From an uncultured Gammaproteobacteria bacterium (GTDB lineage: Bacteria > Patescibacteriota > Microgenomatia > CAYQLK01): a stretch of 45,557 nucleotides of DNA. Where the stretch lies: contig CAYUKQ010000005.1 in the NCBI GenBank assembly GCA_964445355.1, forward strand, positions 1-45,557, written 5' to 3'. The first letter of the stretch is position 1; every line of letters starts with the position of its first letter. The notes beneath the pieces are model-generated. The model had not been told where the DNA came from. It did not search any database and worked only from the letters and a program-made list of their open reading frames with translations. Made by a program: the position numbers and the translations under genes. This document shows positions 27,901 to 43,962 of this stretch, piece by piece.

Positions 27901-29058
27901 TACTGATGGTGAAATTGCCGCAATTGGAGAACGATTACCGCCTGAAGGAGAAATTACCGACAATGTCCCTGGGTAAAAATCCAGTTTATAAATATTACCG
28001 TCGGGGCCCTGGCTTAATTGGACGACAGCGCCTGCGTTACTATCAAATGTGTTGTCAGAAACAACTGACTCAAAATTGGTGTCAAACTGGAGGTATTTGA
28101 TAAACCCAAGCGTATAATCAGCGTAGAAAAAACTATTTTGATATTCAGATGGGAAATTCGATCCGGTATAGAGTAGTGTCGAGGTGATCGAACCAGCCTT
28201 GGCCGGAGGATCAGTGTGGTGATAGGTAAAGACCGGATTAATATACGGACAATTACCACAGTTACCTTCTACGTTGGGCCAGCCGTAATTACCGCCTTTG
28301 TTGATAATATTAAGCTCTTCCCAGGCATCGCCCCCAACATCTCCAGCAATAGGACGACCGTCAGGCAGGAAAGTAAAACGGAATGGGTTCCGGAGGCCAT
28401 ATGCCCAAATTGATTTGGCCGCTCCTGGGGTTGAATAGAATGGATTATCTTGTGGAATTGTGCCGTCTTTATTAATGCGGTGGATCTTGCCGTGTAGATT
28501 GGTAAGATTTTGCGAATTTAGGTTATTAGTATTCATCCCCATCGCCCAGTAGAGCTTGCCATCCGGACCGAATCTTACTTCACCGCCGTGATGGAATACA
28601 TTACCCAACTGCTCGGATTCGAGCAGAATTAATTCTGACGCAGGATCAGCAGTACTACCTGTTACGGTAATTCTGGACAAACGATCGTGGTTTTGAGCTG
28701 TTGTGTATGCTACATACAAGTATCCATTACTGGCAAAATCAGGATCCGGCTCGATACCTAAAACTCCGCGTTCGTCAGCGAAGTCGGTCGGAAGAGTGAC
28801 TAACGTAATTATAGGTTCCGGCTGAATTTGCCCGTTGGCAAATACTTTAATCGCGCCAGATTTTTCGGAGATAAAAATCCGACCATCGGACATGAATCGA
28901 AACGCAGTCGGCTCGGTAAGATCAGAAACCAGCTCAGTAAGATCAAACTCGGCCGGTGGCGCTGCCAGAAGAGGTTGGTCGATTAGTCTTGGCCAGATAA
29001 TGACCCAGAGTAATGCAGCAAAAAATAATTTTAGACTAAATTTAATTAATTTTTCCAA
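24928..29058 (-). CDS. Secreted PQQ-dependent glucose/sorbosone dehydrogenase-family protein with PKD domain and four C-terminal beta-sandwich repeats
   Basis: Signal peptide; ERGVLG, HHGG..RFGPDGKLY, YGLRNPFRF; PKD WDFGDG; four ~180-aa repeats (D.G.P...G.A...G.G.DIWG..D.F..V.Q.L.G.GEI.ARV..Q...WAK.GIM.K). TTG start. Confidence 0.88.
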   Translation of the reverse strand: MEKLIKFSLKLFFAALLWVIIWPRLIDQPLLAAPPAEFDLTELVSDLTEPTAFRFMSDGRIFISEKSGAIKVFANGQIQPEPIITLVTLPTDFADERGVLGIEPDPDFASNGYLYVAYTTAQNHDRLSRITVTGSTADPASELILLESEQLGNVFHHGGEVRFGPDGKLYWAMGMNTNNLNSQNLTNLHGKIHRINKDGTIPQDNPFYSTPGAAKSIWAYGLRNPFRFTFLPDGRPIAGDVGGDAWEELNIINKGGNYGWPNVEGNCGNCPYINPVFTYHHTDPPAKAGSITSTLLYTGSNFPSEYQNSFFYADYTLGFIKYLQFDTNFESVVSDNTFDSNAGAVVQLSQGPDGNIYKLDFYPGTLSVISPSGGNRSPIAAISPSVIAGLAPLSVTFDSSSSSDPDGTSLSYFWDFGDGNTSAQMSPTHIYTVNGTYNATLTVSDGEKSDTETVIITVGNNLPNGMIVSPLANSKYNAGDTINFSATGSDPEDGELPDSAFSWSFVFHHADHIHPFGQQINNQRSGQINIPRTADNVSSTWYEIILITTDSQGLTSSTSRAIHPNLVELTFSSNLPNTAYAIDGIPHTSIYTETAVVGVERVLSAPTPQYFQNYYYKFLSWSDGLEQSHTITTPATDTNYSVNFDQYEIPPNPWVSADVGSPLFAGDASYLNGVYTINGAGGDIWGTQDEFRYVYQTLQGNGEIVARVTAQEDTDDWAKSGIMIKQSTSPLSPYILLAVTPNNGIAFQHSFNSDLGSFAYSLPNAWLKLVRFNNTFTAYKSIDGINWQTLDTVEIAMSEEVTIGMFVTSHKYNELNTSVFDNVSVKKSLTGLWQNTDIGAPYLSGSSQYVNNTFTISGAGSDIWGDSDQFQYVHQSLTGNGEITARITSQTINTDGWAKAGIMFKESLTPQSPYVLFGVTPQHGYAFQTNFNTGSEWGPYNFPNAWVKLVRNNNLITSFYSSNGVDWAEAGSTTLNFAQSTITVGLFVTSHNSSVISTATFDNVNLTASGQQGALPSSFTGTDIGSPKMLGSASYENQVFTVKAAGDDVWGNTDQMYLVHQDLNGDGEIIARVNSQTNTNDWAKAGVIIKDSLSSLSNYALLAVTPANGITMQYNYNNEIAGPASYNFPNVWLKMVRTGNNISSHYSVDGSNWTLIGTRPISLSSSVKIGLFVTSHDGSKISTVTFDNVSVSNTALPILPAPWSSSDIGTPSLSGNATYADNIFSISGAGNDIWGDADQFHFVYQSLDGDGEIIARVNSQTNTNDWAKAGIMFKDSLTSGSDYTLLAVTPANGIAFQSHFDHNINGSSYIFPNIYLKLVRSGNNIAGYTSVDGITWTVFSTKTVNFGQNIFVGLFVTSHNGSQVSSATFDQVSVLD
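24931..27110 (-). repeat. Four tandem intragenic domain repeats (~550 bp)
   Basis: Protein-level repeats; exact DNA tracts 25181-25206=25733-25758 and 25253-25311=25805-25863, both offset by 552 bp. Confidence 0.85.
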
Positions 29059-29231: not shown

Positions 29232-30434
29232 CTAAGGTCTTGGATCTGGCCGGATACACTGTGGAAGTGCGTTCTCGGCCGGTTTACCCAAAGGGTTGAA
29301 GCCAAGATCGGACTTGGCGGGATCAGGCAGGGTCAGGTCAACCTGCCACCAGTAGATACCGGCAATTAGCGGGGTGAAAACCTGACAAGTCGCCTGGTAG
29401 TACCGAGCTTGACCTTCGTAGTCGGCAGCGCTTTCCAGCAGGTAATTCCATGGACGCTGGTGAGCGCCTTGTCGCGGTAACACCCCAACTTCGGTAAAGA
29501 CAACCTTGGAAGGATCGTAGCCTTTTTGACTGAGATCGTCGACCCACGATTGCCAAGAAGTGGCGAGTGAGGCGACACTGGCTCCGATCGGCGCGTCCAA
29601 GGGGTAATAAGCGTCAACGGATGGGAAATCGAGCTCGGCAATAAATGCCGGAGCCAAAACGTCCCAGTTGGCTGAGTAGGTCACTTGACCTTGATAGATC
29701 ACCCTGACAGAAGCAATTAACGTCCGCCAGCGATCCGTCTGAGGCTCCAGTGACACGAACTCCGTGCCGATGTTAAGAATGGCGACTTTTTCCTCTTGCG
29801 CTAACTTGGCGTATCCAAGCATCAGACTGGAGTAGCTGTTGAACCAACTATCCAGATTGCTCGGATTTAATTGCCCCCGCCATTTACCGTCAGCAACGAG
29901 CGAAGCTTCGTCGAGGATAGGCCTAAGCATGACGGTGAAGCCTCGCTTGTGCGCCTCTCGTACAAAAATACGAATGTTCTGATCGCTTGGTGTTTTGGCA
30001 GGGTCTTGCAAGACTTCGCTAGCCCGCCAGTTGGACTGAAAGACGGGAAATACCAAACTTACGCTGTTGACGTTGAGTTCAGCAAGCCTGTCCAGCAGTT
30101 TTGGGCTTTTGTCACGAAAATCTCCCCCGTCACTGTAGACCAGAACAGACACTCCGGCTTGATAGCTGGTAGGGCCTGATCTGGGACTCGTAACTTTGGA
30201 GATCTTGGGGGTCGGAGTGGCTGTCGGATTGACAGTTGTCGTTTGCTTTGCAATTTCTGCTGTCGGTACGAACTGGGTTGGCTGAGCGGTGTTGTTAGAA
30301 ACAGGTGGCGCCGAAATTTCTTTGGCGCCACCGTCTTTGCCTCCAACAAACCAAATGGCGAAGCCGACTGCCAGACTAATTAGCAGTGCGGCTGACAGCT
30401 GAAGATCTCGCCGATTCCAGACCAAAAGGTTCAA
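29232..30434 (-). CDS. Membrane-anchored glycoside hydrolase, GH113-like (beta-mannanase family TIM barrel)
   Basis: N-terminal TM plus P/T linker; GFTVMLRPIL, LNIGTEF, TYSANWD, VDAYYPL, FTEVG motifs; AAGGAGG SD before TTG. Confidence 0.75.
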   Translation of the reverse strand: MNLLVWNRRDLQLSAALLISLAVGFAIWFVGGKDGGAKEISAPPVSNNTAQPTQFVPTAEIAKQTTTVNPTATPTPKISKVTSPRSGPTSYQAGVSVLVYSDGGDFRDKSPKLLDRLAELNVNSVSLVFPVFQSNWRASEVLQDPAKTPSDQNIRIFVREAHKRGFTVMLRPILDEASLVADGKWRGQLNPSNLDSWFNSYSSLMLGYAKLAQEEKVAILNIGTEFVSLEPQTDRWRTLIASVRVIYQGQVTYSANWDVLAPAFIAELDFPSVDAYYPLDAPIGASVASLATSWQSWVDDLSQKGYDPSKVVFTEVGVLPRQGAHQRPWNYLLESAADYEGQARYYQATCQVFTPLIAGIYWWQVDLTLPDPAKSDLGFNPLGKPAENALPQCIRPDPRP

Positions 30435-31857
30435 CCTCCTTCACCAGGCCATGTCTGGTCTTTTCCCAGAAGTGTGGTCGTGTGATGAGCTGCAATAGGG
30501 CTTTCCAAGTTGCAAAACTCAGAATTCCCCAATACAGTGGTGCCAACACCATCCACTTGATGTTTGGGTAGAGTCCTCTGATCTTGCACCCCATCATCAC
30601 GTACAGGACAAACAGAACGTTGCCGAGCGCGATTGACAGGACGCCAAGATAGAAGATCGGGAGCGGATAGAGCTGTTCGATGAACGTGGCGTTGGTGGCC
30701 TCGTAAGCGAGCGTCATGATCCAGAAGATCGGATTGACCAGCAACACCAAAGGTGTTACAGCCACGATCACTACGAAGCAGAGGAAATTGACAAACCCCA
30801 GATCACGGTACAGGTCGATCTGGTTCCTGGTGTGTACCAGAAATGTGACCATTCCCCCTTTCTTCCACCGCGAACGCTGGCGAATCAGGTTGCCTAGGTG
30901 GCTGTTAGCCTCTTCCCAGGTAACACTATCCATTAGCCTCACTTGAAGACGTCGACGGGCGATGCGGATCCCCATATCGATGTCTTCTGTCACATTGTAC
31001 GCATCCCAACCACCCAGCTTTACCACGGTATCGGTGCGGAAATGATTAGAAGTGCCACCCAGCGGGACTGGCATTCCCATTTTTCCTAACCCGGGCAGAA
31101 TGAGGTTGAAGTAGGTTGCGTACTCAGCACTGAAGAATTTGGTGATCCAGTTAGTGTACGGGTTATAGTACTCAAGCTTGGCCTGAATACAAACAACCCG
31201 CCGGCTGGACTTGCGGAAGCATGCGACCGCTTTTTTGAGCTGATCTGGTTCCGGGCGGTCTTCGGCGTCGTAAATGACGACAAACTCGCCGGTTGCCCTC
31301 TTCAATCCTTCATTGCAAGCGCGCGGCTTGGTCTTGAGAATTGAGTCAGGCATGATCAGGATCTCAAAGCACGAAGGAAGCTCACAGCTTTCAATCTCCC
31401 GGATGGTTCGACGGTCTTTCTCTTCCAAGAGCAGAATGATCTGCAATCGGTCGATCGGATAGTCGAGTTTGCCGAGATTGTCGATAAGTTTGGCTGCGAT
31501 GTTGTGCTCGTCGTAGAGTGGCACTAGAATGGTGTACCGAGGCAGAGTCGACCCTTGTATAAGGGATCGCAACTCAGCATCTGTGACCACCATCAAGGCG
31601 GACTCGAGCGATTTAGCTGTAAGCAGTCCCTTAAAAACGATGATGACGACGTAGATCAGAGTGATCGTGCCGGCCAACGTCAACAGAACTGGCATATAGC
31701 CGAACTTCAGGATAGCCGCTGCCATGATCCCAAGGATCAAGACAATGACTACGGTTTGTTTACCAGTCAGGATAACCTCTGCGGTTTCCTCTTTGGGGCG
31801 CGTCGCCAACTGGTGAAGTACACCGCGTCCATTGCGGACATCTTCAGGACTGATCAA
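30376..31857 (-). CDS. Processive GT2 glycosyltransferase (cellulose-synthase-like)
   Basis: VPLYDE, TKPRACN, YDAED, VTED, QRSRW (D,D,D,QxxRW set), flanking TM helices, C-terminal FWEKTRHGL. Confidence 0.9.
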   Translation of the reverse strand: MISPEDVRNGRGVLHQLATRPKEETAEVILTGKQTVVIVLILGIMAAAILKFGYMPVLLTLAGTITLIYVVIIVFKGLLTAKSLESALMVVTDAELRSLIQGSTLPRYTILVPLYDEHNIAAKLIDNLGKLDYPIDRLQIILLLEEKDRRTIREIESCELPSCFEILIMPDSILKTKPRACNEGLKRATGEFVVIYDAEDRPEPDQLKKAVACFRKSSRRVVCIQAKLEYYNPYTNWITKFFSAEYATYFNLILPGLGKMGMPVPLGGTSNHFRTDTVVKLGGWDAYNVTEDIDMGIRIARRRLQVRLMDSVTWEEANSHLGNLIRQRSRWKKGGMVTFLVHTRNQIDLYRDLGFVNFLCFVVIVAVTPLVLLVNPIFWIMTLAYEATNATFIEQLYPLPIFYLGVLSIALGNVLFVLYVMMGCKIRGLYPNIKWMVLAPLYWGILSFATWKALLQLITRPHFWEKTRHGLVKEVEPFGLESARSSAVSRTAN

Positions 31858-31922
31858 GACAAAGGTTCCTCCGTCCAGATTGGTTTTATGGCTGATGATC
31901 GATTGCTTTTGTCTTTTGGAGA

Positions 31923-33602
31923 CTACGGCAGTGCTGTGCGGCGGTAGATTTGGATCTGCTCGTTACTGAAAACCAGCAGAAAATGATCGTCGAGTGCAGG
32001 CGTACCATGCAGATGCTCGTATACCTTGTCGCGCTCGTTATCTGAACCCCGCATGACAATCCAATCGACAAAGTCGGCCGGATCAACAAGTGCGGGCTCC
32101 CACATTCGGTAACTACCTTCGTAAAGGATTTGACCGACGGGCAGCTTGGAAGCGACCTGAAGCTCTTCGTTGCCGTAACTTTCCATCAGAACCAGTCCGG
32201 TGTCATAGTTTCGGCTGAGCCAGTAAGCGGCATCTCTTTGCGTGACCGACAACGCCTTGTCCATATCGGCTTCCGGCTCATTAAGGGTAATGATATTACC
32301 CTGGCTGATCACCAGTGCCGAGAAGGCACAGACACCACCAACGATCACGGCACGACTAAGGACAAAGCCTTTGGTCAGATAGCCAGCGAAGATCGACAGT
32401 GGCAGAAGCATCGGCAGCGAAAACCGTACATTGTACAAGTCTCCGCTAATTTGTTCGACGTGCAAGGGGCGCTGACCAAAGTACAACGCGGCAACGAAGA
32501 ACGGGAACGGAAACAGCAAGGCGTACACCGGTGCTTTACGGATGTTGATACGGTCGCTGACAATGAAGTAAGCGAGACCAGCAATCCCGATTACCAGCGT
32601 GACGACGCCTGCCGTTTCGTAGGTCGCGATCGAGTAGGTCTTGAGCGCAATCCAGATGTTGCCTACGGACTTTTCCGCCTCACCCACCCAAAGGGAAGGT
32701 TTGGCATACTCGCCGTATTGGAAGTAGAAGGGATTATCAAAGATCTGGTAATTCCAGACCAGCCATCCGACAATGCCGAGGCTGGCTAGGAAAGTCAGAA
32801 AAAAGACTTCCCCTTCGATCCGTTCGCGAGACATGCGCTGGTTGATACAGACGACACCCCAGAGCGGAACGAAAAGAGCCAAAAGAATCCAGCCCTCGTA
32901 CCGTGTTAAGGTGGCGCAGATCAGCATTCCGGCAGTCATCAACCCGTTGACGATGTTGCCAACTGGCTGGTCGATCGCCAATGTCCACTTGATGAAGAAA
33001 TAGACACTGCCCGACAAAAACATGCACAGTGGCAGCTCTGTCATGGCAGTGGACTGAAGGTAGGTGACGTTGGGATTGCTGATGAACACCAAACTGGCCA
33101 CCACCCCTGCCCACCGTGATCCGGAAATGGTTTCGGTGATCTTGTACAGAAAGACCGAGGTCCCGACGAAAGAAAACATTGACGGAATGCTTCCCGCGAT
33201 GCCTGTTTCGTAGAGATAGTCGTTCCAGATCAGTGACTGCATCAGGAGATGCGGCAAAGGTGGCCAAACACCACCGAGTTGAGCCAATCCCGGTGTGGGA
33301 CTGTCAACAACTCGTTTGGCGATAAGAAGGTGTGATTGTGCGTCCTTGTAGACGAGGATCTGATCATTGCTGAAGTAGTAGGCAAAACTGCCTACTGACA
33401 CCAACACACTGATCAGTACGACGCCGAGCAGATAGTAGTCGTGCTGCTTGGTAACTTTGACTGACGCCAGAGCAGCTTTTGGTCGAACCGACCTTGGCGG
33501 GGTGGTTCGCACAGCGATTGCTCCAGCGTTGACTTCTGTGGTTACCAGTTTGTAGCTGGTTCGCACAAAAAATCTTGCCACTACAAGCATGGCGTGGATC
33601 AT
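31923..33602 (-). CDS. GT-C fold (ArnT/PMT-like) polyprenyl-phosphate-sugar-dependent glycosyltransferase
   Basis: Multi-TM; DAQSHL..AKRV, WPPLPH, TRYEGW motifs; C-terminal soluble domain. Confidence 0.75.
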   Translation of the reverse strand: MIHAMLVVARFFVRTSYKLVTTEVNAGAIAVRTTPPRSVRPKAALASVKVTKQHDYYLLGVVLISVLVSVGSFAYYFSNDQILVYKDAQSHLLIAKRVVDSPTPGLAQLGGVWPPLPHLLMQSLIWNDYLYETGIAGSIPSMFSFVGTSVFLYKITETISGSRWAGVVASLVFISNPNVTYLQSTAMTELPLCMFLSGSVYFFIKWTLAIDQPVGNIVNGLMTAGMLICATLTRYEGWILLALFVPLWGVVCINQRMSRERIEGEVFFLTFLASLGIVGWLVWNYQIFDNPFYFQYGEYAKPSLWVGEAEKSVGNIWIALKTYSIATYETAGVVTLVIGIAGLAYFIVSDRINIRKAPVYALLFPFPFFVAALYFGQRPLHVEQISGDLYNVRFSLPMLLPLSIFAGYLTKGFVLSRAVIVGGVCAFSALVISQGNIITLNEPEADMDKALSVTQRDAAYWLSRNYDTGLVLMESYGNEELQVASKLPVGQILYEGSYRMWEPALVDPADFVDWIVMRGSDNERDKVYEHLHGTPALDDHFLLVFSNEQIQIYRRTALP

Positions 33603-33607
33603 GATTT

Positions 33608-34090
33608 CTATGTTCCTCCAACGGTTATGGTGCGCGGCCGTCTGTGTTTGAACACAAACTTGTGACTGGCAGCAAAAGTAAGCAGCAGTCCCGCGGCAGT
33701 GCCTGAGATCAACGCTAGCGGATGATTGGCAACCAGAATGATAAGTCCGAACACGATTGTGTTGGCACCCAAACTGGTAAGAGCCATCAGGTTAAACCTG
33801 AGGAGTGAGGAAACCTCGTAAGGACTCCAACTACCCGCGCTTTTCCGGTCATGCCAGGTGATATGGTAACTTAGCAGGTAGTTAACCTGCGTCGAAACCA
33901 CAAAAGCGGTTGCGTTAACGACTGTTGCCTGCCACCACTGATCCAGACTAAAGGCCTGAATGATGGTGAAAAAGACGAGGTACTGCAGTACGGTACAGAA
34001 TGCACCGACACAGAGGAATTTGGTGATGCGCAGGTAGTTAACCTGTGCACCAGATCCACTGAGGAACGGTCTGGTTATCTCGAAAGACAC
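33608..34090 (-). CDS. GtrA-family flippase-like membrane protein
   Basis: KFLCVGAFCT, NYLLSYHITW, FAASHKFVF; four TMs; AGGAG SD before GTG. Confidence 0.85.
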   Translation of the reverse strand: MSFEITRPFLSGSGAQVNYLRITKFLCVGAFCTVLQYLVFFTIIQAFSLDQWWQATVVNATAFVVSTQVNYLLSYHITWHDRKSAGSWSPYEVSSLLRFNLMALTSLGANTIVFGLIILVANHPLALISGTAAGLLLTFAASHKFVFKHRRPRTITVGGT

Positions 34091-35043: not shown

Positions 35044-36078
35044 ATGAAGGTATTGGTCACTGGAATTTCCGGATTTTTGGGTATTAATTTGACCAGGTAT
35101 CTGCTTGCCAAAAAGGTAAAGGTAGTCGGGCTGGATATAGCTAAGTTTAACTATCCAGAAAGGGATTCAATAATTTTCGTCCACGGAGATATCCGTAACA
35201 AAAAGGATATTGCAAAGGCGATCAAAGACGTTGATATGGTCGTGCATTGTGCAGCCGCTCTTCCATTGTATTCAGACGAAGATATCTATTCGACTGATTT
35301 TACCGGTACAAAAAACATGCTTGAGATTTCGTGGAAACATAATGTGAAAAGATTTATACAAATCTCCTCGACGGCTGTTTATGGCATTCCAGACCATCAT
35401 CCATTGCTGGAAAGCGATAAATTGGTGGGGGTGGGAATGTATGGCGAATGTAAGATCAAGGCGGAAAAGTTGTGTGAAAACTACCGTGAAAAAGGAATGA
35501 TTATTCCTGTACTTAGACCAAAAAGTTTTGTTGGCCCTGAAAGATTAGGAGTTTTTGCTTTGCTGTTCGACTGGGCAAGATCTGGTAAAAATTTTCCGAT
35601 GATCGGCAGTGGAGAAAATAAGTATCAATTGCTCGATGTCGAGGATCTGTGCGAGGCAATTTGGCTATCGATGAGCAAGCCTGGTAAGTTGGTAAACGAA
35701 ACTTTTAATATCGGCGCAAAGGAATTTTCAACAATGAAAGAAGACTACCAGTCTGTTCTGACTGAGGCTGGATTCGGCAAAAGAATCATTGCCCTACCAG
35801 AAACTCCCGTAACTATTAGCCTTAAAGTGCTGGAAAGACTAAAACTATCCCCTCTTTATAAATGGGTATACGAGACGGCTGGTAAGGATAGTTATGTTTC
35901 GATCAACAAAGCAGAAAAAAAACTGGGTTTTAAGCCGAAATATAGTAACAGTGAGGCGCTGGTCAGGAATTACAAATGGTTTATTGATAATTACGAAAGC
36001 TTTAGTTCTTTGTCTGGTGTTTCTCACCGGGTTCCATGGAATCAGGGCGCGCTATCTATTGCAAAGATATTTTTCTAA
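35044..36078 (+). CDS. NAD-dependent epimerase/dehydratase (extended SDR)
   Basis: TGISGFLG, HCAA, SSTAVYG, YGECK (YxxxK). Confidence 0.92.
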   Translation: MKVLVTGISGFLGINLTRYLLAKKVKVVGLDIAKFNYPERDSIIFVHGDIRNKKDIAKAIKDVDMVVHCAAALPLYSDEDIYSTDFTGTKNMLEISWKHNVKRFIQISSTAVYGIPDHHPLLESDKLVGVGMYGECKIKAEKLCENYREKGMIIPVLRPKSFVGPERLGVFALLFDWARSGKNFPMIGSGENKYQLLDVEDLCEAIWLSMSKPGKLVNETFNIGAKEFSTMKEDYQSVLTEAGFGKRIIALPETPVTISLKVLERLKLSPLYKWVYETAGKDSYVSINKAEKKLGFKPKYSNSEALVRNYKWFIDNYESFSSLSGVSHRVPWNQGALSIAKIFF

Positions 36079-36105
36079 AAAAAGCCGCCCTTTTTACGGA
36101 GCGGC
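36077..36105 (-). terminator. Intrinsic terminator of the small-gene operon
   Basis: Minus strand GCCGCTCC-gtaaaa-AGGGCGGC followed by a T-run. Confidence 0.65.
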
Positions 36106-36128
36106 AAGTCAACTTGATGTGTTTACAC

Positions 36129-36365
36129 TTACCCCTGCGGGGTAAGCTGCGGCGGAGCGAGCAGGTAGCTCGGCACTTTGAGAGTGAAAGTTCTCGATTG
36201 CCATACGCACTTGTCGCCGTCGTGACCTAGAGAAAATGCGCTGCCGGCGATCTGAACCCGTTCTTCGGCAATCACTCGACGATGAGTATTGCCATTGGGT
36301 ACCGGTCCTGCGATCAGGTCGACCTCACCGCAGGTACAGGAGAAAGAGGTGAATTCAATCTCCAC
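36129..36365 (-). CDS. Small hypothetical protein with CxC...H...C (possible metal binding)
   Basis: GTG 36365 overlaps the end of the upstream gene; start uncertain (the ORF extends to 36461). Confidence 0.45.
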   Translation of the reverse strand: MEIEFTSFSCTCGEVDLIAGPVPNGNTHRRVIAEERVQIAGSAFSLGHDGDKCVWQSRTFTLKVPSYLLAPPQLTPQG

Positions 36366-36567
36366 TTCTGATCCTACCTTCTTTGTCCAGCCGATCGTAG
36401 GCCTTAGCGACCATTTCACGGGTGATGTGAGGATTCTCGATGTGCGTATTGCCGTAGACAAAACTGATCGCTTGTGCCCGGCGCTCTTGAGGTGTCATGA
36501 CAATACCACGTGCAAGCACGATAAGTTTGTCGAGTGCGGGTGAGGACGCGTGATGTGTCAAACACAT
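36355..36567 (-). CDS. Small protein with ERRAQ.ISF.YGNTHIEN motif
   Basis: 70 aa, ATG, second gene of an SD-led operon; the motif is one I recall from a conserved small-protein family. Confidence 0.7.
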   Translation of the reverse strand: MCLTHHASSPALDKLIVLARGIVMTPQERRAQAISFVYGNTHIENPHITREMVAKAYDRLDKEGRIRSGD

Positions 36568-36584
36568 AAGTTCGGTTCAGCGTC

Positions 36585-36911
36585 CTATTCTCCGCCGACG
36601 AGGTGGCGGTTTTGGTCCGGCAAAGCACTGGCAAGCTCACTCCAGCTGGAAGGCCGAAGAGCTTCGACAGATCGGCGTTCGGCAACTTCAAGGAAAAACT
36701 CCAAGAAGTGTGCGATCTCGTCGCGGGCTGCACCATTGAAGAGATGCTTGACAAGCAGTCCGGCAACTTCGCGCCTGCCCTCCACGGCTTCAGCCTGATT
36801 TGGGGCGTGAATGTAGATTGCGGCGATGCGTGCTGCGTCCGGTGGGTACTTTCTGGCGAACTCCTGCATGGTCGCCAGAGCAGGGGGTGTTAGACCACCA
36901 TCACTGCTCAT
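36585..36911 (-). CDS. Hypothetical protein (108 aa)
   Basis: AGGAGG 8 nt before ATG; upstream TTGCAA-N16-TAAACT. Confidence 0.7.
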   Translation of the reverse strand: MSSDGGLTPPALATMQEFARKYPPDAARIAAIYIHAPNQAEAVEGRREVAGLLVKHLFNGAARDEIAHFLEFFLEVAERRSVEALRPSSWSELASALPDQNRHLVGGE

Positions 36912-36950
36912 TATCTTTTCCTCCTGTTTTTGGTTAAAGAACTATCAAAT

Positions 36951-36978
36951 AGTTTACTCCAATAGGTTTTTTTTGCAA
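36951..36978 (-). promoter_or_regulatory. Candidate promoter TTGCAA-N16-TAAACT
   Basis: Read on the minus strand upstream of the 108-aa gene. Confidence 0.45.
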
Positions 36979-36988
36979 ATTAAGGCAT

Positions 36989-37018
36989 AAAAAAGCGGCC
37001 ATATGGTTAATGACCGCT
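36989..37018 (-). terminator. Intrinsic terminator
   Basis: AGCGGTCAT-taaccat-ATGGCCGCT then T-run on the minus strand. Confidence 0.75.
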
Positions 37019-37030
37019 GAAAGTAGGTTT

Positions 37031-37471
37031 TTAGATGGCGATTTTTGGCTTGCGGACGCGGGCCTCCTCGCGGAAGCTGGAAACTTGCCCGTTGACCTTG
37101 AGCGCCACGTCGAACCCGTCGACATAGTTTTGGCAGCGAGTGAACAGCCAGGCGTTACGGATCAGTTCGCGGATAACCTGCTCGTACCCGTCGGCACTTT
37201 CGCTAGTCAGGATCGTCTGAAGATCAGCGACGATCATTTGACGAACGATGCTTCGTCCGAGTTCAAGTCGCACCGCATCATCGCGGCAGAGTACCAGTCG
37301 CAGCTGATGACCATCCGGCAGGATTTGGATGATCTCCAGCTTGCCTTGCGCCCGATCGGCAATGTGCGCCAACCGGCGGGCAAAGAACCAGAGCGCGTGT
37401 TCGTCGTTTTTGGGGATCCGGTTGATCTCCACCAAGAGTCGGCGAACGCTACGTGGTCTCCTGACTGTCAT
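37031..37471 (-). CDS. Hypothetical protein (146 aa)
   Basis: GGAGAGG SD, own promoter and terminator on the same strand; preferred over the overlapping + strand ORF. Confidence 0.7.
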   Translation of the reverse strand: MTVRRPRSVRRLLVEINRIPKNDEHALWFFARRLAHIADRAQGKLEIIQILPDGHQLRLVLCRDDAVRLELGRSIVRQMIVADLQTILTSESADGYEQVIRELIRNAWLFTRCQNYVDGFDVALKVNGQVSSFREEARVRKPKIAI

Positions 37472-37541
37472 GACCTCTCCAAAAAGTTAAAGTTTTGCGA
37501 TCTTATTAACCTTTTTAGGGGTTAAAAACCACAAGGCAGGT

Positions 37542-37570
37542 ATTTTAATTCAAGTCTGGGATTTTGACAA
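37542..37570 (-). promoter_or_regulatory. Promoter TTGTCA-N17-TAAAAT
   Basis: Read directly on the minus strand. Confidence 0.7.
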
Positions 37571-37621
37571 GATTTATTTTACTGAAATTAATAACCTGTA
37601 ATATGGGAGTTAAAAAAACAT

Positions 37622-37869: not shown

Positions 37870-38574
37870 ATGATCTTTGAGCAGAGTGGATTGTTTTATG
37901 TTTATTCATTAATCAGCGATGGAAATATGTCGCTGAATTGGGGTGAGGAAAATAAAGTGATGCAAAACCGAATGCGTTTTTTGCAGTCTTGCCAATTAGA
38001 CACAAACTATGTTGTTCGGGCTAGTCTGGTTCACGGCACGGAGATCAAAGAAGTTGACGCCGATGACTGTGGCAAGGAATTTACGTGCGACTGTTTAATT
38101 ACCAAGGATCCAAAGATCGTTTTGAGCATGGTGACTGCGGACTGTTTCCCGCTTGTTTTGTACGACCGTACTAAGCAAATCGTTTCGCTGACTCATCTTG
38201 GCCACCGCGGTGTTACGGCTAAGCTTGCGGAAAAAGTTGTGGAAAGGATGCAAAACCTGGGCGCAAGCCTAACTGAGACGATCGCGATAATCGGTCCGGG
38301 AATCACAAAAGAAAGTTATGTTTTTAAGCAAGTCGATCAGATCAATGATAGTGATTGGCAGCCTTTTTTAGCCAAAACAGAGGACAGCCAAATAGCAATC
38401 GATCTGCCTGGCTATATTGTCCACCAGCTGGAAAAAAGCGGGATAAAAAAAGAAAATATTACCGACTTAAAAATTAACACCGCTACAGATCTGCGCTTTT
38501 TTTCTCACTATCGAAGTATTAAAAACAACGAAATTGAAGGAAGATTTTTGTCGGCTGTACAGATGAGGAATTAG
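37870..38574 (+). CDS. YfiH/PgeF-family (multi-copper polyphenol oxidase-like, peptidoglycan editing factor)
   Basis: VHG, TADCFP, HLGHRG, IGPGI, FFSHYR. Confidence 0.88.
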   Translation: MIFEQSGLFYVYSLISDGNMSLNWGEENKVMQNRMRFLQSCQLDTNYVVRASLVHGTEIKEVDADDCGKEFTCDCLITKDPKIVLSMVTADCFPLVLYDRTKQIVSLTHLGHRGVTAKLAEKVVERMQNLGASLTETIAIIGPGITKESYVFKQVDQINDSDWQPFLAKTEDSQIAIDLPGYIVHQLEKSGIKKENITDLKINTATDLRFFSHYRSIKNNEIEGRFLSAVQMRN

Positions 38575-38576
38575 AT

Positions 38577-39866
38577 CTATTTAGCCAGATCGGACAGTAT
38601 CAGCCTGCAGAGCTTGTGAGAATTGCCAGACCCCATCACCACTACAGCATCACCCGGAGTAACCAGCTTTGCAATGCTATTTGATACGGATTGAAAGTCA
38701 GGTAAGAATTCAGCTCGTGAGCCAATATTATCCGCAATTGTTCGTCCTGTAAAAAGCGGGTCAGGTTGTTCTCGTGAGGTAAAAATCTCGGTAATAATTA
38801 TATGATCAGCTAAACGGAGAGAGTCATTAAGCTGAGAAATTGTTGATCTTAAGCGACTAACAGTGTGAGGCTCAATCACGGCAATGATCTTGCCCCGAGG
38901 ATGAGTAGACCTGATCGCCTCCAAAGTTGCTGCAAATGCGGTCGGATGATTAGCGTAATCGTCATAGACGCAGATATTGCGTGGTTTGCCGATCAGTTCA
39001 ATACGGCGAGATAAGCCCATAAATCGTTTAAGTGAATCCAATGCAACCGACTGTGCTATTCCCAGCTCTTTTGCTAAGGTCAGCACACCTGTGGCATTAA
39101 TTAGATTATGACGACCAGCAATCGATAGATGAGTGTTTGAAGTTGGGGCACAAAACGGAACAAGTTGGAATTTAACCTTACCGAGTCGCTCGATCAAGGT
39201 GCAAATATTGACGTCATCAGGATTGTAAATCAGTGCCCCTGAATCAGATATTTGACGGACAAATTGCAGAAAAGTATCGATCACTTTGTCCAGCGTGCCA
39301 AAGAACTCCGGATGATCGAGCTCAATATTATTGAGTATGACAAAGTCGGGGCTGTAGGAGGCAAAATTATTATGAAATTCGTCGGCCTCAGAAACAAAAA
39401 AGTCACCATTACCCAGTCGGATATTATTCCCCCATCCCAGATCTGTTGCACCAAGCTCAACGACCGGATCGAGTCCGGTATCTTCCAGAAGATGACCGAC
39501 CATGGCGGTCGTAGTGCTTTTGCCGTGTGTACCTGCAACACAAATCAGTTTTTTATTTTGGTGCAGATAAAGACCTAAAAATTCCTGCCACTTCAGAAGT
39601 TTGTTGCTCGTTCTGGCGTACTCGATCTCAGGATGATTATCATTAAGGTAAAAAACAGCCGGTGAAACCGCAATGATGTCGGCCAAGTCAACATGATTCC
39701 TGTTGTGACCAGCATAGACTGGTATACCAGCAGATCGAACTTTGTCGAGATATGGGGTATCACTGCTTAGATCACAACCACTAACCTTAAAACCAAAATG
39801 CTTGGCGATCTGAGCAACCGCAGAAACCCCCGAACCTCCGATACCGACAAAATGTACTGATTTCAT
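38577..39866 (-). CDS. murC: UDP-N-acetylmuramate--L-alanine ligase
   Basis: GIGGSGVS, GTHGKSTTT, EADE, DDYANHPT, MGSG. Confidence 0.9.
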   Translation of the reverse strand: MKSVHFVGIGGSGVSAVAQIAKHFGFKVSGCDLSSDTPYLDKVRSAGIPVYAGHNRNHVDLADIIAVSPAVFYLNDNHPEIEYARTSNKLLKWQEFLGLYLHQNKKLICVAGTHGKSTTTAMVGHLLEDTGLDPVVELGATDLGWGNNIRLGNGDFFVSEADEFHNNFASYSPDFVILNNIELDHPEFFGTLDKVIDTFLQFVRQISDSGALIYNPDDVNICTLIERLGKVKFQLVPFCAPTSNTHLSIAGRHNLINATGVLTLAKELGIAQSVALDSLKRFMGLSRRIELIGKPRNICVYDDYANHPTAFAATLEAIRSTHPRGKIIAVIEPHTVSRLRSTISQLNDSLRLADHIIITEIFTSREQPDPLFTGRTIADNIGSRAEFLPDFQSVSNSIAKLVTPGDAVVVMGSGNSHKLCRLILSDLAK

Positions 39867-39959: not shown

Positions 39960-40583
39960 TTAGACGCGGGCGGCAGCGAGTGATGCTTCGACCAGTTTAG
40001 TGAAGTCGTCAGCCATGGTGGCACGGTTGTGCCAGCCGACACTGAACATTGCAACTTCGTCCCGATCGGACAGGTCACGGCCGGCGTTCATGATCATGTT
40101 GGCCATGTCGAGCCGCTTGGCGAGCTCATCGGCAGGCATATCCTGCCTGGAGGTCATGTTGGCGGTCAGATACTCGGGGTCGCCCTCGAGTATAAACCAG
40201 CGCACGATACGGACATCTCCAGCCTCAGGACGCTCGATCAGCTCCTGCGGGACAGCTGACTGATAAACCGGATTGAGTTCGATCACAGCACCAGAGGCAC
40301 CGTTCTCGATCAATGACTGGATGTCGCTGACGCGGTAAGCGTAGTGGAAACCCTTGTTCTCGTGGTGACCCACAAGTTCTCCGGCTTCAAGGTGGCGATT
40401 GTAAACGCCTTCATCGATGCAGATCTTGGTTTCAACACCTTCCCCACGTGAGGGTCGGGTCGTTACCATTTGTGGATTGGCCACACCGAGCCGCTCAATG
40501 ACGGTTTGGGTGAGGTAATCCTTGCCAGCTCCGGAAGGACCGGAGATACCGATGACCGGGATTATTTTTCGCTTTTTATCCAT
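39960..40583 (-). CDS. Divergent guanylate-kinase-like P-loop kinase
   Basis: ISGPSGAGKD P-loop, TTRPSR, GFHYA; GC-rich. Confidence 0.75.
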   Translation of the reverse strand: MDKKRKIIPVIGISGPSGAGKDYLTQTVIERLGVANPQMVTTRPSRGEGVETKICIDEGVYNRHLEAGELVGHHENKGFHYAYRVSDIQSLIENGASGAVIELNPVYQSAVPQELIERPEAGDVRIVRWFILEGDPEYLTANMTSRQDMPADELAKRLDMANMIMNAGRDLSDRDEVAMFSVGWHNRATMADDFTKLVEASLAAARV

Positions 40584-40595
40584 ATCAAGTGCGTA

Positions 40596-40623
40596 ATTTT
40601 ACACTAAATTAGCCAAATGTCAA
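40596..40623 (-). promoter_or_regulatory. Promoter TTGACA-N16-TAAAAT
   Basis: Read directly, 12 nt before ATG 40583. Confidence 0.6.
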
Positions 40624-40644
40624 TTTACATTACTAGACCTATAG

Positions 40645-41211
40645 TTATTTAGAAACCTTATTGATGTCAGGTACACCAAAAAGTTTGGCAAGTTCACGGA
40701 ATTTTTGTACATTGTCTGGCCCGAATTTGGCAGCAGTTTTGCAGTAATCATCAAAAGTGTTGAATTTGGGATTTTTAGAGTGAAATTTGTCCGCGTACAT
40801 AACAAGCTTTTCTTCTAGTGATTCGGCGGTATAATCATCGGCCGGCAACGGAAGATTGTTGGATAGAACATATTGTTTGGTAAGCCCTAGACCTGTGTGG
40901 CATTTTGCTATTCGGCAAAGCGGCTCTGACAAACCTTCGGATTGCAATATTTCATATCCTATAATACCGTGCTTGATGTAGTTTGTCTCATCAAAAACCC
41001 CTTCGCGACTAATGAGTTTGTATGCACCGATATCGTGTAATAATGCCCCGCTTTTGACGAGATCGGTGTTTATTTTTATATTCTGAGATGAAAGAATTTG
41101 ATCGCAAATTTGCCAAACTATTCGACAGTGCGAGTAGATAATATTAAAAGCGTGGTGATTCGGTGCGTATTTGCGGTGTAAATCTTCGATCTGTCTATTG
41201 GTAGGATACAT
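40645..41211 (-). CDS. HD-domain (HDIG) metal-dependent phosphohydrolase
   Basis: HC..V, GALLHDIG, HG..G, CHTG.G, EEKLVMYADKF; ATG 41211 preferred. Confidence 0.9.
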   Translation of the reverse strand: MYPTNRQIEDLHRKYAPNHHAFNIIYSHCRIVWQICDQILSSQNIKINTDLVKSGALLHDIGAYKLISREGVFDETNYIKHGIIGYEILQSEGLSEPLCRIAKCHTGLGLTKQYVLSNNLPLPADDYTAESLEEKLVMYADKFHSKNPKFNTFDDYCKTAAKFGPDNVQKFRELAKLFGVPDINKVSK

Positions 41212-41259
41212 AAGGTTATTTTCAATTAAAAATACCAACAAACACTAAAAATACGAGAG

Positions 41260-42648
41260 CTATGCGAAAATTTCAATAAGTTTAAGTATGCCCGGGCGGA
41301 TCTGAGTATATTTGATCTTACTTGCTGTGGTATTGACGGTCGTAGTGAGGGTTTTTTGCAGCTTGGCAATAGTTTTGTCGTTGGCTGCTGTTTCAAGTAT
41401 TCTGACAACTTCCGACCAGTGTTGTGAGAGAATATTAAGCATTTTCTCCGTCTCGGGAGTAAGGGTCTGTGATTCATGGGCGGTTCTGAGTACGGCTCGG
41501 GCCATATCGGCATAAGTACTACTATTGTCGGCAGTGGTGAGTTCAGAACTATCAAGCACAACGATGGGCACACTGGTTGCGACTTCCCCACTGGCTGCCG
41601 CGTGACGGGCAAGAAGCTGAATATCAAACGACATATCGGTGATTTTGTCCGGCATTGCCACAACAGACGCAAGGTTGGCCGTGTCAAAGGCTTTGAACCC
41701 CGCTTGGGTATCAGTAGGCAGATAGTGGCCAAGTAAGTCGTTGCGAATAGTGCCTAGCAGGATCTTGGTGCGTTTTTTACCTTCGGAGTGTAGAAACTCG
41801 GCATCTTCGGACACGGATAATTCGTGCCTGCGGTTAGCAGTCACAGCAGAAGCACCATTAACGATAGGATGGATCAGTGTACCGATTAGTCCGAGATTGT
41901 AGGATAGGTCTGCGTCGGTGTAGACGACGATATCATCTCCGGACATGATCGAGCTGGCCATACCGGCATAGACAGAACCTCCCTTTTTGCTGTCAGAGGT
42001 GTTTTTAAGCTCAACAACTGCCTCTTTGACCAGATCCGGGATATTAGCTGAGCTGGCATTAATACAATCTTGCAAATAAATAACTTCGTGAGACTCGTGT
42101 AATCTGCGATGATCGATAATGCTTTGGATCGCCTTACCTGTCTCGGTATCACACCCGTCGTCGACCCAAATAAGTCGGATATTAATATTCGGGTTCGCCT
42201 TTGTAAGCCACCTGAGTTGACGATCTTTTTCGATGACAAAATTCTCCCCACTTGGGTGAGGATCGAGCGCCGAGTCAGAGCGCTGATGACCCCAGATCAA
42301 GCCATTGATCTCACGTGGGCGCAGACGGTGACTTTCACGAAAGACCGAAACCACAACACCGATTTGTAGCGGTCTGTGAATAATACTAAAGGTCGCTTTT
42401 GATATTGCAAGTTTGACTCCTGCATGAATAAAAAGAGGGGTATTTGGGTCTTTGAACAAATCTAGTTCCAGTTTTTTCAGCTCGATTAAGCTGCCATTAT
42501 AGGCTTTGATCAGTTCGTCAGCAAAATGTCTCAACTCTTTTTGGACATGCTGATCTTTGAAATTATGATCAGGCACGTGTGTCCAATCGCGACCCGGTCC
42601 GAGTGAGCCATTGATAAGTTCGAAGGTGTTTAGGTATGAAGCAGACAT
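41260..42648 (-). CDS. Soluble GT2 glycosyltransferase (polyprenol-phosphate glycosyltransferase-like motifs)
   Basis: VDDGC, KKGGSV..G, YTDADLS, ANR, DTQAGFKAF, FDIQLL; no TM helices evident. Confidence 0.82.
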   Translation of the reverse strand: MSASYLNTFELINGSLGPGRDWTHVPDHNFKDQHVQKELRHFADELIKAYNGSLIELKKLELDLFKDPNTPLFIHAGVKLAISKATFSIIHRPLQIGVVVSVFRESHRLRPREINGLIWGHQRSDSALDPHPSGENFVIEKDRQLRWLTKANPNINIRLIWVDDGCDTETGKAIQSIIDHRRLHESHEVIYLQDCINASSANIPDLVKEAVVELKNTSDSKKGGSVYAGMASSIMSGDDIVVYTDADLSYNLGLIGTLIHPIVNGASAVTANRRHELSVSEDAEFLHSEGKKRTKILLGTIRNDLLGHYLPTDTQAGFKAFDTANLASVVAMPDKITDMSFDIQLLARHAAASGEVATSVPIVVLDSSELTTADNSSTYADMARAVLRTAHESQTLTPETEKMLNILSQHWSEVVRILETAANDKTIAKLQKTLTTTVNTTASKIKYTQIRPGILKLIEIFA

Positions 42649-42682
42649 AGCAATGGCTTTTATGCTGGATCAATAAAAAGAA

Positions 42683-43771
42683 TTATTTAAGCGATAAGAG
42701 TGATTTGACCTTATCAACTGCTCTAGTCAGATCGTCATTGACTACGTAGACAATACCGAGATCAGGATTGTCGGCAAAAAGCGTTGTTTCAGCGACTTCC
42801 GTGATCTGTCCGGGTCCCATGGTGGATTCGAGATAAGAGTCTTTGACACTATAGCGACCGGATACTTCCGGATCCTGATGAGTGGGATCACCGTAGGTAC
42901 GGACAATGACTCTGGTTGCCAGCTCTAATATTCCCCCACCGGGTGGCAAGATACAGATCGGTTGGAGTACCAGTTCTGGGAGTAATGCGGGGGCGTTTTT
43001 GCTAATATTTACTACTTCGCCAGGGCTCTGTTCAATAAAAGCCACATCGGAGGATTCAAAAGCCTCTTTGGTAGCCGCAACGGTCGTACCGTATCTGCCT
43101 CGACCTTCGCGGATCAAATCAGCCAGGAATGGTCCTTGTTCCAGGTAGCGGTTATTTCCGCTTTGGTCCTTGCCTTCGACGTCAACATCAGGGATATAGT
43201 GATAGTCGACACCTTCAACTTCTCCGGGGCGTCTGGAGCGTGTAGTCGTATTGACGACTCTTGGACCAGAGAGCTTAATGATCGTTCCTTTACCTGTACC
43301 ACCTATACCCAGCATAGGTACACCGATCTTTTTGCCAGCCGTAAGTGCCGCCTCGACTTTGGTATGACCCCTATCAAAGGTGAAATCTTCGAGCGAAGAA
43401 GCAATCTTCTCGTCGGGGATATTGTCGGTTACTAGTCCGACCCCTTCAGCCAAACGATGCAGGACATTGTAATAATTGGTCTGATATTCAAATAACGTAT
43501 CAGCCTTGAGAGCCAGCAAATCAGCGATTATCGTCGGATTGCGTTTTAGTTCTGAGCGGAGGGCTTTGACGTCGTCACTAGCTTCCTCTGAAATTTCGAT
43601 CATTGATGGATTGGCAACATAGCGCATGACGATCTCTGTGACGACACCTGTTTGGGAGGCTAACCACTTGCCTGCTTCTGTTTGACTGTCAGCTGCAGAA
43701 AGCGCCTCTTTGACTTCAGTTTGTATTGCATTGTATTTGTCTTTTTCTGCCGGATTCATTTTGTTTTGCAT
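42683..43771 (-). CDS. Guanylate-kinase-like protein with an extra ~130-aa N-terminal domain
   Basis: GIGGTGKGT, TTTRSRRPGEVEGVDYHY, GRYGT, ILPP, VVNDDL..AV; start assigned at MQNKMN. Confidence 0.78.
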   Translation of the reverse strand: MQNKMNPAEKDKYNAIQTEVKEALSAADSQTEAGKWLASQTGVVTEIVMRYVANPSMIEISEEASDDVKALRSELKRNPTIIADLLALKADTLFEYQTNYYNVLHRLAEGVGLVTDNIPDEKIASSLEDFTFDRGHTKVEAALTAGKKIGVPMLGIGGTGKGTIIKLSGPRVVNTTTRSRRPGEVEGVDYHYIPDVDVEGKDQSGNNRYLEQGPFLADLIREGRGRYGTTVAATKEAFESSDVAFIEQSPGEVVNISKNAPALLPELVLQPICILPPGGGILELATRVIVRTYGDPTHQDPEVSGRYSVKDSYLESTMGPGQITEVAETTLFADNPDLGIVYVVNDDLTRAVDKVKSLLSLK

Positions 43772-43962
43772 TTTATTTATTACTTGTATTGTTCTGCAGC
43801 TGTTTAGAGAACAAGAAAACAGCGCGAGAGGTGATTCTAACATCAGGCTAAAAAATACTCAACGAGACAGTGTGAATGGTGAAATAAAATAATCAAGGAT
43901 TAAAAAATAATAAAAAGGGGTTAAAATAAAGAAAGTAATTATAAAAATAAAAAAACAAAAAT

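Follow-up and report, generated by a model that had tools for sequence, protein, structure and literature searches.

A guanylate-kinase-like protein and a predicted soluble glycosyltransferase form a rare, strongly constrained gene pair in Patescibacteria

Four adjacent genes, here called A to D, were analyzed within a stretch of 45,557 nucleotides (nt) of contig CAYUKQ010000005.1 (the window), to which all coordinates refer unless one of the related loci (L001-L036) is named. A preliminary description made from the sequence alone had read them, in this order, as a fused guanylate kinase (Gmk)-like gene, a family 2 glycosyltransferase (GT2), an HD hydrolase and a second Gmk-like gene, all co-directional and closed by a terminator before murC. 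This layout was confirmed: all four open reading frames (ORFs) lie on the minus strand between a glyoxalase-like gene and murC, and a hairpin with a T-run separates D from murC. The features of the locus are as follows (lengths in amino acids, aa).

42683-43759, minus strand: gene A, 358 aa from the favored ATG at 43759 (longest ORF 42683-43843), helical N-terminal domain plus guanylate-kinase fold.
41260-42648, minus strand: gene B, 462 aa, predicted soluble GT-A glycosyltransferase.
40645-41241, minus strand: gene C, 198 aa, HD/HDIG hydrolase.
39960-40583, minus strand: gene D, 207 aa, PhnN-like/Gmk-family P-loop kinase.
43834-43862, minus strand: promoter of the A-B(-HD) unit, TTGAGT-17-TAGAAT with an extended -10 TG, from a consensus scan.
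40623-40596, minus strand: promoter of D, TTGACA-16-TAAAAT, 11/12 matches, from a consensus scan.
39923-39897, minus strand: terminator-like hairpin between D and murC, 10 bp, 6 GC, plus T-run.
38577-39866: murC, beyond D and the terminator-like hairpin.
37870-38574, plus strand: pgeF, beyond murC.

The window is chromosomal and carries uvrC/A/B, pyruvate:ferredoxin oxidoreductase, iPGM, enolase, a PPDK-family (phosphoenolpyruvate-utilizing) enzyme, murC and pgeF. Scans for tRNAs and Rfam families returned none in the window, and no integrase or other mobile-element marker was present at the locus. The four genes had been described as mostly richer in GC than their surroundings, which holds against the window average of 43.6% for A (48.1%), B (46.9%) and D (55.9%), strongly so for D alone, and fails for C (38.5%).

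Genes A and B were adjacent in 11/11 loci recovered from at least seven lineages, and their identities to the window fell in parallel across these lineages, from 92/91% (A/B) down to 34/31%. Close relatives of the pair occurred in L001-L011, L024-L026 and L030-L031. Among the remaining loci, the Parcubacteria loci L012, L013 and L027 retained 46% identity for A and 43% for B, L014 retained 46% and 36-37%, L016 retained 50% for A (its B is cut by the contig end), and L015 and L028 retained 34% and 31%. The two genes were co-directional and separated by 9-36 nt in most loci, and divergently oriented in L015 and L028. All-against-all comparison of the flanking ORFs of the 11 loci identified only A and B as common to every locus. 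The functional link between the fused Gmk-like gene and the glycosyltransferase that had been suspected earlier is therefore strongly supported, as the genes remain neighbors down to ~31-34% identity. The pair is also rare: A homologs formed 10 clusters among 5.8 billion proteins and were present in 5/185,579 species-representative genomes, under the names ‘guanylate kinase’ (JGI) and ‘hypothetical protein’ (NCBI). No A-B fusion was found among the long B-family proteins, none of which was matched by the A-family hidden Markov model. The related contigs belong to metagenome-assembled genomes (MAGs) labeled Candidatus Saccharibacteria or Candidatus Parcubacteria. To date, this rare, strongly constrained pair has been seen in Patescibacteria alone, in MAGs of the Saccharibacteria and Parcubacteria types.

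Two related loci carry a different label. L024 (CAYOLO010000001.1) and L025 (CAYGIG010000009.1) stem from third-party annotation (TPA) MAGs of ~40% GC titled ‘uncultured Gammaproteobacteria bacterium’; they hold the A-B module together with genes syntenic with Saccharibacteria-labeled MAGs, CAYOLO010000001.1 being a contig of 660 kb. The Gammaproteobacteria label of both is probably wrong.

The two other genes of the locus showed a narrower distribution. In the window and in loci L008-L011 and L024, the HD gene (C) comes directly after B; L026 has it 2.6 kb downstream, and it is absent from the A-B loci L002, L004, L012, L014, L015, L016 and L028. Gene D follows B-HD only in the window, L008-L011 and L024, and is gone from L002, L004 and every distant lineage. 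The murC-pgeF genes follow as well in the window, L008-L010 and L024 (L011 ends within murC), and because they travel along, the A-B-HD-D order may be inherited synteny. In L002 and L004, whose A and B match those of the window as closely as the L024 copies do, the entire HD-D-murC-pgeF block is gone from the site and the epimerase-CAP genes are kept. The four-gene set as one conserved system is not supported.

Pronounced constraint on the pair was also evident from the rates at which the genes diverge. Amino-acid identity between the window and L024 was 79% for both A and B, 65% for HD, 73% for D, 56% for murC and 55% for pgeF; the corresponding values for L008 were 92% (A), 91% (B), 69% (HD), 96% (D), 78% (murC) and 70% (pgeF). 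Protein divergence is thus slower in A, B and D than in murC, whereas codon identity at identical residues was only 35-68% across all genes. Synonymous codons have diverged as far as those of murC, so that the strong amino-acid conservation of A, B and D indicates purifying selection; recent horizontal transfer as its cause was rejected.

The promoter of A (TTGAGT-17-TGnTAGAAT) is conserved in five lineages and formed the best-conserved block in an alignment of five upstream regions; the element is also present upstream of A in L008 and L024. In the window (43760-43833, minus strand) and L008 (8812-8887), ~55 nt with a hairpin (GCGCTGTTT...AAACAGC) are inserted between this promoter and the start codon, and in L024, L002 and L004 the ATG of A follows only ~20 nt past the -10 element. 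The energy of this leader hairpin was no better than that of shuffled sequence (z about -1.4). Gene D was suspected earlier of having its own promoter within a mosaic unit, and this was borne out: an equivalent of the window promoter (TTGACT-16-TAAAAT) lies upstream of D in both L008 and L024, and a near-identical terminator-like hairpin lies 3' of D in L008, none being detected in L024. Since the D promoter is conserved in L008 and L024 and the terminator is kept in L008, the transcription units are taken to be A-B(-HD) and D. Within the first of these, a consensus scan found no strong promoter or terminator between B and C, and C is probably co-transcribed with A-B, in the clade of the window only.

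Gene A passed the Pfam domain threshold for PF00625 through its C-terminal half only (28.3 bits, cut-off 25.2) and failed the Gmk equivalog TIGR03263 (32.3 bits, cut-off 160.45), which places it in the Gmk superfamily and outside the equivalog. The ATG at 43759 is almost certainly the real start of the gene, because all A homologs comprise 353-382 aa and the conserved promoter overlaps the start of the longer ORF. In the AlphaFold 2 model (pLDDT 92), residues 1-140 form an all-helical N-terminal domain for which no structural match was found in PDB or BFVD, and the C-terminal ~220 residues adopt the Gmk fold (Foldseek against Gmk structures, E 2e-9 over ~220 columns, TM(target) 0.62-0.69). The P-loop reads GIGGTGKGT, with GxGxxGKGT invariant in the family alignment, and we take its GKGT ending to be the adenylate-kinase form. 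Segment TTRSRRPGEVEGVDYHYI matches the Gmk signature pattern T-[ST]-R-x2-[KR]-x2-[DE]-x2-G-x2-Y-x-[FY]-[LIVMK], presumably PROSITE PS00856, as do 7/9 A family members.

Positions of A were mapped to Gmk through the 1GKY alignment and then onto the A family alignment, with what we take to be the E. coli Gmk sequence used for orientation. At the nucleoside monophosphate (NMP) site of Gmk, the phosphate-binding R174 and R177 as well as E180 and Y186 are invariant in the family; so are Y223 and T225, and R283 and R287, which are candidate lid arginines. Guanine is contacted in yeast Gmk by Ser34 and Glu69. The position of Ser34 is occupied by an invariant Asn in the A family, and the column of Glu69 holds Glu, Ala or other residues and is not conserved. 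Overall, A resembles Gmk in its fold, P-loop, TTRxxRxxExxGxxYxY segment, Tyr-Gly-Thr element and two invariant arginines in the presumed lid, and differs from it by the extra helical N-domain of ~140 aa, the GKGT P-loop, the Ser34 to Asn exchange and the loss of a conserved Glu69. Judged from the model and the family alignment, A is most likely a functional kinase of the NMP type that acts on phosphomonoesters and whose base specificity has changed.

Gene B scored below the Pfam cut-off for GT2 enzymes (PF00535, 17.5 bits, cut-off 23.3). Its AlphaFold 2 model (pLDDT 71) shows a GT-A core with helical extensions at both the N- and C-terminus and a disordered basic insertion of ~30 residues after strand 1 (ExxR...HPxGE...K). 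The best Foldseek matches were ArnC, GtrB, mannosylglycerate synthase (MGS) and MpgS (E 6e-5 to 5e-3), and all significant matches were GT-A enzymes. No match was obtained in PDB with the single sequence; a profile of 40 family members retrieved Pyrococcus furiosus DPMS (PfDPMS) as the sole match, a weak one (E 1.3e-5). The motifs DDG, DAD (D245/D247), DTQxGFK and R273 are invariant in these 40 diverse members, in which D163-D164 and D245-A-D247 are invariant or nearly so. No membrane segment was predicted for B (maximum 19-residue Kyte-Doolittle mean 1.43), and its C-terminal helices are polar with a conserved NxTAS motif, unlike amphipathic interface helices. From model and motifs, we assign B to a GT-A glycosyltransferase subfamily that Pfam does not recognize.

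In the profile alignment, the DAD motif of B falls on the DAD of PfDPMS, a motif described as characteristic of DPMSs, and R273 falls on the Arg of the PfDPMS ‘GSRY’ motif, which by residue count from D89 is taken to be Arg117; the acceptor phosphate in PfDPMS is bound by Arg117, Arg131 and Ser135 (PMC5526996). Equivalents of Arg131 and Ser135 could not be reliably placed in B, and the PfDPMS metal ligand Gln93 is replaced by Ser249. B thus shares with DPMS, GtrB and ArnC the GT-A core, the DAD metal/diphosphate motif, an Asp-containing DxxxGF loop and R273 on the ‘GSRY’ Arg, and differs from them in having no transmembrane or clearly amphipathic interface helices, Ser in place of Gln93, the basic insertion, the helical extensions and a sub-threshold Pfam GT2 score.

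B homologs formed six clusters in the 5.8-billion-protein index. An exhaustive profile search of a representative library extended the family to 552 clusters (E<=1e-3), of which 54 reached E<=1e-30, and the A-linked B proteins corresponded to its representatives (P-numbers) as far as rank P0054 (E 3e-51). Fusions in distant members involve UGPase, MobA-like nucleotidyltransferase, ROK sugar kinase, Zeta-toxin-type kinase, HAD phosphatase, PIG-L deacetylase and MetE-like domains, a repertoire typical of sugar activation and small-molecule glycoside synthesis, with the kinase-glycosyltransferase fusions paralleling A-B. Giant proteins of 1,700-5,500 aa (P0103, P0148, P0158, P0169, P0184, P0191, P0194 and L036 1802-8446) carry up to three B-like GT-A domains each and almost no other recognizable Pfam domain; no Pfam domains were found in those of 1.7-2.2 k aa. 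P0185, in which MSP and methyltransferase domains accompany a B-like domain, may be of eukaryotic origin. A metagenome scan with the B family was uninformative on the module, as it returned mostly generic GT2 proteins of 260-340 aa with no A-like neighbor and no specific NCBIfam identity.

Gene C is a clear HD-domain protein (PF01966, 47.5 bits, cut-off 22; HDIG TIGR00277, 41 bits, cut-off 27.6) that reached no equivalog (TIGR00295, 62.9 bits, cut-off 172) and had no sequence relative in PDB; its relatives start ~10 residues later than the window ORF. Gene D remained below the cut-off for PF00625 (17.7 bits) and reached neither of two NCBIfam equivalogs, Gmk (TIGR03263, 29.2 bits) and the ribose 1,5-bisphosphate phosphokinase PhnN (TIGR02322, 26.4 bits, cut-off 156); its sequence matches to Gmk were weak (E 0.01), and A and D are remote homologs (hhalign probability 85%, E 6e-6). 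In the D family (~30 homolog clusters), the P-loop reads GPSGAGKDY, and ELNP and NGPxNR are family-specific motifs. What D has in common with Gmk is the P-loop and the beginning of the NMP-binding segment; the Gmk signature pattern is matched neither by D nor by any of its relatives. The divergence of the GMP-binding segment that had been noted for both kinases is therefore upheld for D and does not apply to A, which matches what we take to be the PROSITE pattern. With scores far under the equivalog cut-off (32 and 29 bits against 160 bits), neither kinase is a canonical housekeeping Gmk, in agreement with the preliminary description.

PhnN is, like D, a Gmk-family kinase, and JGI names two D homologs PhnN. 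The GKD P-loop and similarly shortened NMP-binding segment of D are also found in what we assume to be the E. coli PhnN sequence. However, the PhnN score of D is far under 156 bits, ELNP and NGPxNR are not PhnN motifs, and phn genes, and hence a phn operon context, were found at none of the D loci. Five D relatives that were looked up (29-54% identity) lie in unrelated neighborhoods, next to methyltransferase/acetyltransferase genes, UDP-glucose dehydrogenase/epimerase genes, small hypothetical genes, or a HAD hydrolase and an AA-kinase-family (PF00696) gene. The high GC content of D (52-57%) is kept in the window (64% at third codon positions), L008 (12059-12682) and L024 (9118-9735) against 40-45% in the surroundings, and as synonymous sites have diverged, this long-lived anomaly does not stem from recent transfer. 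D is best described as a neighbor with its own transcription unit and as no more than a possible member of the module.

Our interpretation, in which we place about even confidence, is that A and B constitute a two-enzyme small-molecule pathway that acts on a shared phosphorylated, possibly nucleotide-like substrate and yields a phospho-glycoside; that the pair is a unit is much firmer than the chemistry. The catalysis, substrate class, order of steps and role of the HD protein set out here are what we infer from directly observed gene presence, folds, motifs, pair conservation and promoters. A would phosphorylate the phosphate of a phosphomonoester at the expense of ATP, on an acceptor that may be nucleotide-like and is probably not GMP-specific. 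B would be a soluble, metal-dependent (DxD) and probably inverting GT-A enzyme that transfers a sugar from a nucleoside diphosphate sugar to an acceptor, plausibly at the phosphate or a neighboring hydroxyl of the shared molecule. The enzymes nearest to its catalytic core (DPMS, GtrB, ArnC) load a sugar from such a donor onto a phosphate monoester. Both would then work in one short cytoplasmic pathway on a common phosphorylated small molecule. In the clade of the window, the HD phosphohydrolase that joins the operon could add a hydrolytic or dephosphorylating step, comparable to kinase-glycosyltransferase-phosphatase routes to glycosides.

Known systems offer partial parallels. MGS (GT78) and MpgS (GT55), both soluble and of the GT-A type, are ~380-400 aa long, carry a helical domain at the C-terminus and glycosylate small, often phosphorylated acids; the logic of their pathways (phosphorylated acceptor, glycosyl transfer, phosphatase) would accommodate A, B and HD. 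The likeness to B is confined to the fold (E 1e-4 to 5e-3, 10-12% identity) with no sequence-profile match, and the pathways known to date rely on phosphatases of the HAD type and do not involve a dedicated Gmk-like kinase. The Zeta/PezT UDP-GlcNAc kinases provide a precedent for a P-loop kinase tied to sugar-nucleotide chemistry, and P0094, a distant member of the B family, carries a fused Zeta_toxin domain; yet A is a Gmk-family and not a Zeta-family protein, an antitoxin-like partner is missing, and there is no hint of toxicity.

Several points weigh against the two-enzyme pathway. No A or B homolog has been characterized; the B model is of moderate quality (pLDDT 71), with weak Foldseek E-values (~1e-4); and the closest relatives of B use lipid phosphate acceptors, so that a membrane-peripheral role is possible. 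The informative fusions sit in distant B-family members (E 1e-25 to 1e-41), which perhaps have other functions, and many B-family proteins apparently have no A partner (10 A clusters against at least 54 for B). With its exact Gmk signature, A could simply make GDP. Because HD is absent from most lineages, the three-step scheme is not general.

The lipid acceptors of its relatives lead to an alternative that we consider unlikely, in which B is a membrane-peripheral polyprenyl-phosphate glycosyltransferase (a split DPMS/GtrB) feeding a GtrA-type flippase and a PMT-like GT-C 7-10 kb away, and A handles the guanine or another nucleotide pool. These partners would be found in a GC-rich block of the window:

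29232-30434, minus strand: GH113.
30376-31857, minus strand: GT2 of the Glyco_trans_2_3 type.
31923-33602, minus strand: PMT-like GT-C.
33608-34090, minus strand: GtrA_DPMS_TM protein.

This alternative draws on ArnC, GtrB and DPMS being the best structural and sequence relatives of B, on the DAD motif and the alignment of R273 with the ‘GSRY’ Arg (taken as Arg117), and on the GtrA_DPMS_TM, PMT-like and GT2 genes of the window, a cluster that contains no obvious GtrB and is also located near A-B in L002. Human DPM1, too, is a catalytic domain that lacks its own membrane segment (PMC5526996). On the other hand, B contains no hydrophobic segment, its C-terminal helices are polar and carry NxTAS, and Ser replaces the Gln93 of PfDPMS. 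Furthermore, no GtrA or PMT genes are located near A-B in L012, L014, L015, L016 or L028, and the obligatory Gmk-like partner would be left unexplained.

A more specific form of the two-enzyme pathway, which we regard as quite unlikely, holds that the product of A-B, joined by HD in some lineages, is an as yet undescribed metabolite, a glycosylated compound of the nucleotide type that is specific to episymbiotic Patescibacteria. Here the DPMS-like B would load a sugar onto the phosphate of an NMP-like molecule instead of a lipid phosphate, and the Gmk-like A would bind and phosphorylate the same or a neighboring intermediate. It is compatible with the NMP-type pocket of A without guanine specificity, the placement of R273 of B on PfDPMS Arg117 and the lack of membrane elements in B. 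If true, this would represent a non-canonical route to a sugar-nucleotide or signaling nucleotide.

The preliminary description itself had favored A, B, HD and D as one nucleotide-modification or nucleotide-based defense system, which now appears very unlikely. The A-B-HD-D order does occur in three lineages, including L024 with its murC only 56% identical; the genes are co-directional and tightly spaced, A keeps the NMP-binding signature, D is compositionally foreign, and HD domains are often nucleotide phosphohydrolases. As to a modified nucleotide as the product, A does retain a phosphate-binding site of the NMP type, but the acceptors of the nearest relatives of B are lipid phosphates or glycerate and not bases. 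When co-occurrence of the set was checked, HD and D followed B in one Saccharibacteria-like clade only, where murC-pgeF follow in the same three lineages, so that the order may be inherited synteny; both genes are absent from L002 and L004, whose A and B are equally similar, and from every distant lineage. D relatives of 29-54% identity occur elsewhere beside housekeeping genes, and D has its own conserved promoter. Mobile-element markers are missing from the locus, and purifying selection on A, B and D is strong.

Defense and phage candidates were rejected on direct searches. A PADLOC-DB v2 scan of the four proteins gave nothing significant (best E 0.004-0.02 over short stretches, none for B), so that a defense system was rejected. 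The A and B family alignments had no relatives on the 2.9 million viral contigs of IMG/VR, PHROG matches were weak and generic (guanylate kinase, and GtrB-like for B), and a BFVD fold search with A retrieved generic viral guanylate kinases only, through the C-terminal domain only. With no viral-contig relatives and chromosomal housekeeping genes on its flanks, a phage origin or a DNA (base) hypermodification cluster was likewise rejected, and on present evidence the A-D locus should not join lists of candidate immune systems.

That A or D is simply the divergent housekeeping guanylate kinase of the lineage, with unrelated neighbors, is also hardly probable: the JGI name of A homologs, the Gmk signature of A, the housekeeping genes on the flanks and the lack of another gmk in the 45.6-kb window point that way, but the window is a small part of the genome, in which a missing canonical gmk means little, the scores of A and D (32 and 29 bits) are far from the 160-bit TIGR03263 cut-off, the A family occurs in only 5/185,579 species genomes, the guanine-binding Glu is not conserved in A, and a housekeeping enzyme would need neither the extra 140-aa domain nor the adjacent B that are always present.

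While the folds involved were known already, the A-B pairing, the N-terminal domain of A and the B subfamily were not; a literature search returned nothing relevant on a Gmk-like/glycosyltransferase pair or on PhnN-like kinases in Saccharibacteria. Patescibacteria are ultra-small, have a minimal metabolism and depend on host cells, and most genes kept under strong selection in them are informative for this reason. A-B is conserved more strongly than murC in a handful of lineages, with both partners annotated as ‘hypothetical’ and nearly invisible to Pfam. If its product were identified, a new glycoside of the cytoplasm, a new compatible solute or a new sugar-nucleotide might come to light, and a GT-A subfamily of several hundred clusters, which is also represented in giant multi-domain proteins, would gain a function.

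Further observations concern the surroundings of the pair. An Exo_endo_phos (EEP) family gene lies 0.1-4 kb from A-B in L015 (60-794) and L016 (7087-7905), and L015 also has a YfbR-like HD 5'-nucleotidase 2.4 kb from A-B; these neighbors were not reported as a shared family in the flank comparison, and coincidence is possible. In the window, the block at 29232-34090 (minus strand) has 51-53% GC against 43.6% overall, and the GH113-GT2-PMT-GtrA cluster that it holds is also found near A-B in L002 with its order kept. The block resembles an island for glycosylation and for the synthesis of a surface glycan, possibly of the mannan type. At 24928-29058 (minus strand), a protein of 1,376 aa contains a glucose/sorbosone dehydrogenase (GSDH) beta-propeller, a PKD domain and DUF1349 repeats. 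This large protein is probably secreted or located at the surface; another gene of the GSDH family is found near A-B in the Parcubacteria locus L012.

A second GC-rich patch (36000-37600, 52-54% GC) contains two fully overlapping antisense ORFs, 37010-37525 (plus strand, 171 aa) and 37031-37471 (minus strand, 146 aa). ORF 37010-37525, the only one of the overlapping pair that was scanned, had no Pfam match. Because homologous sequence occurs in L002 and L008, one of the two is a real conserved gene.

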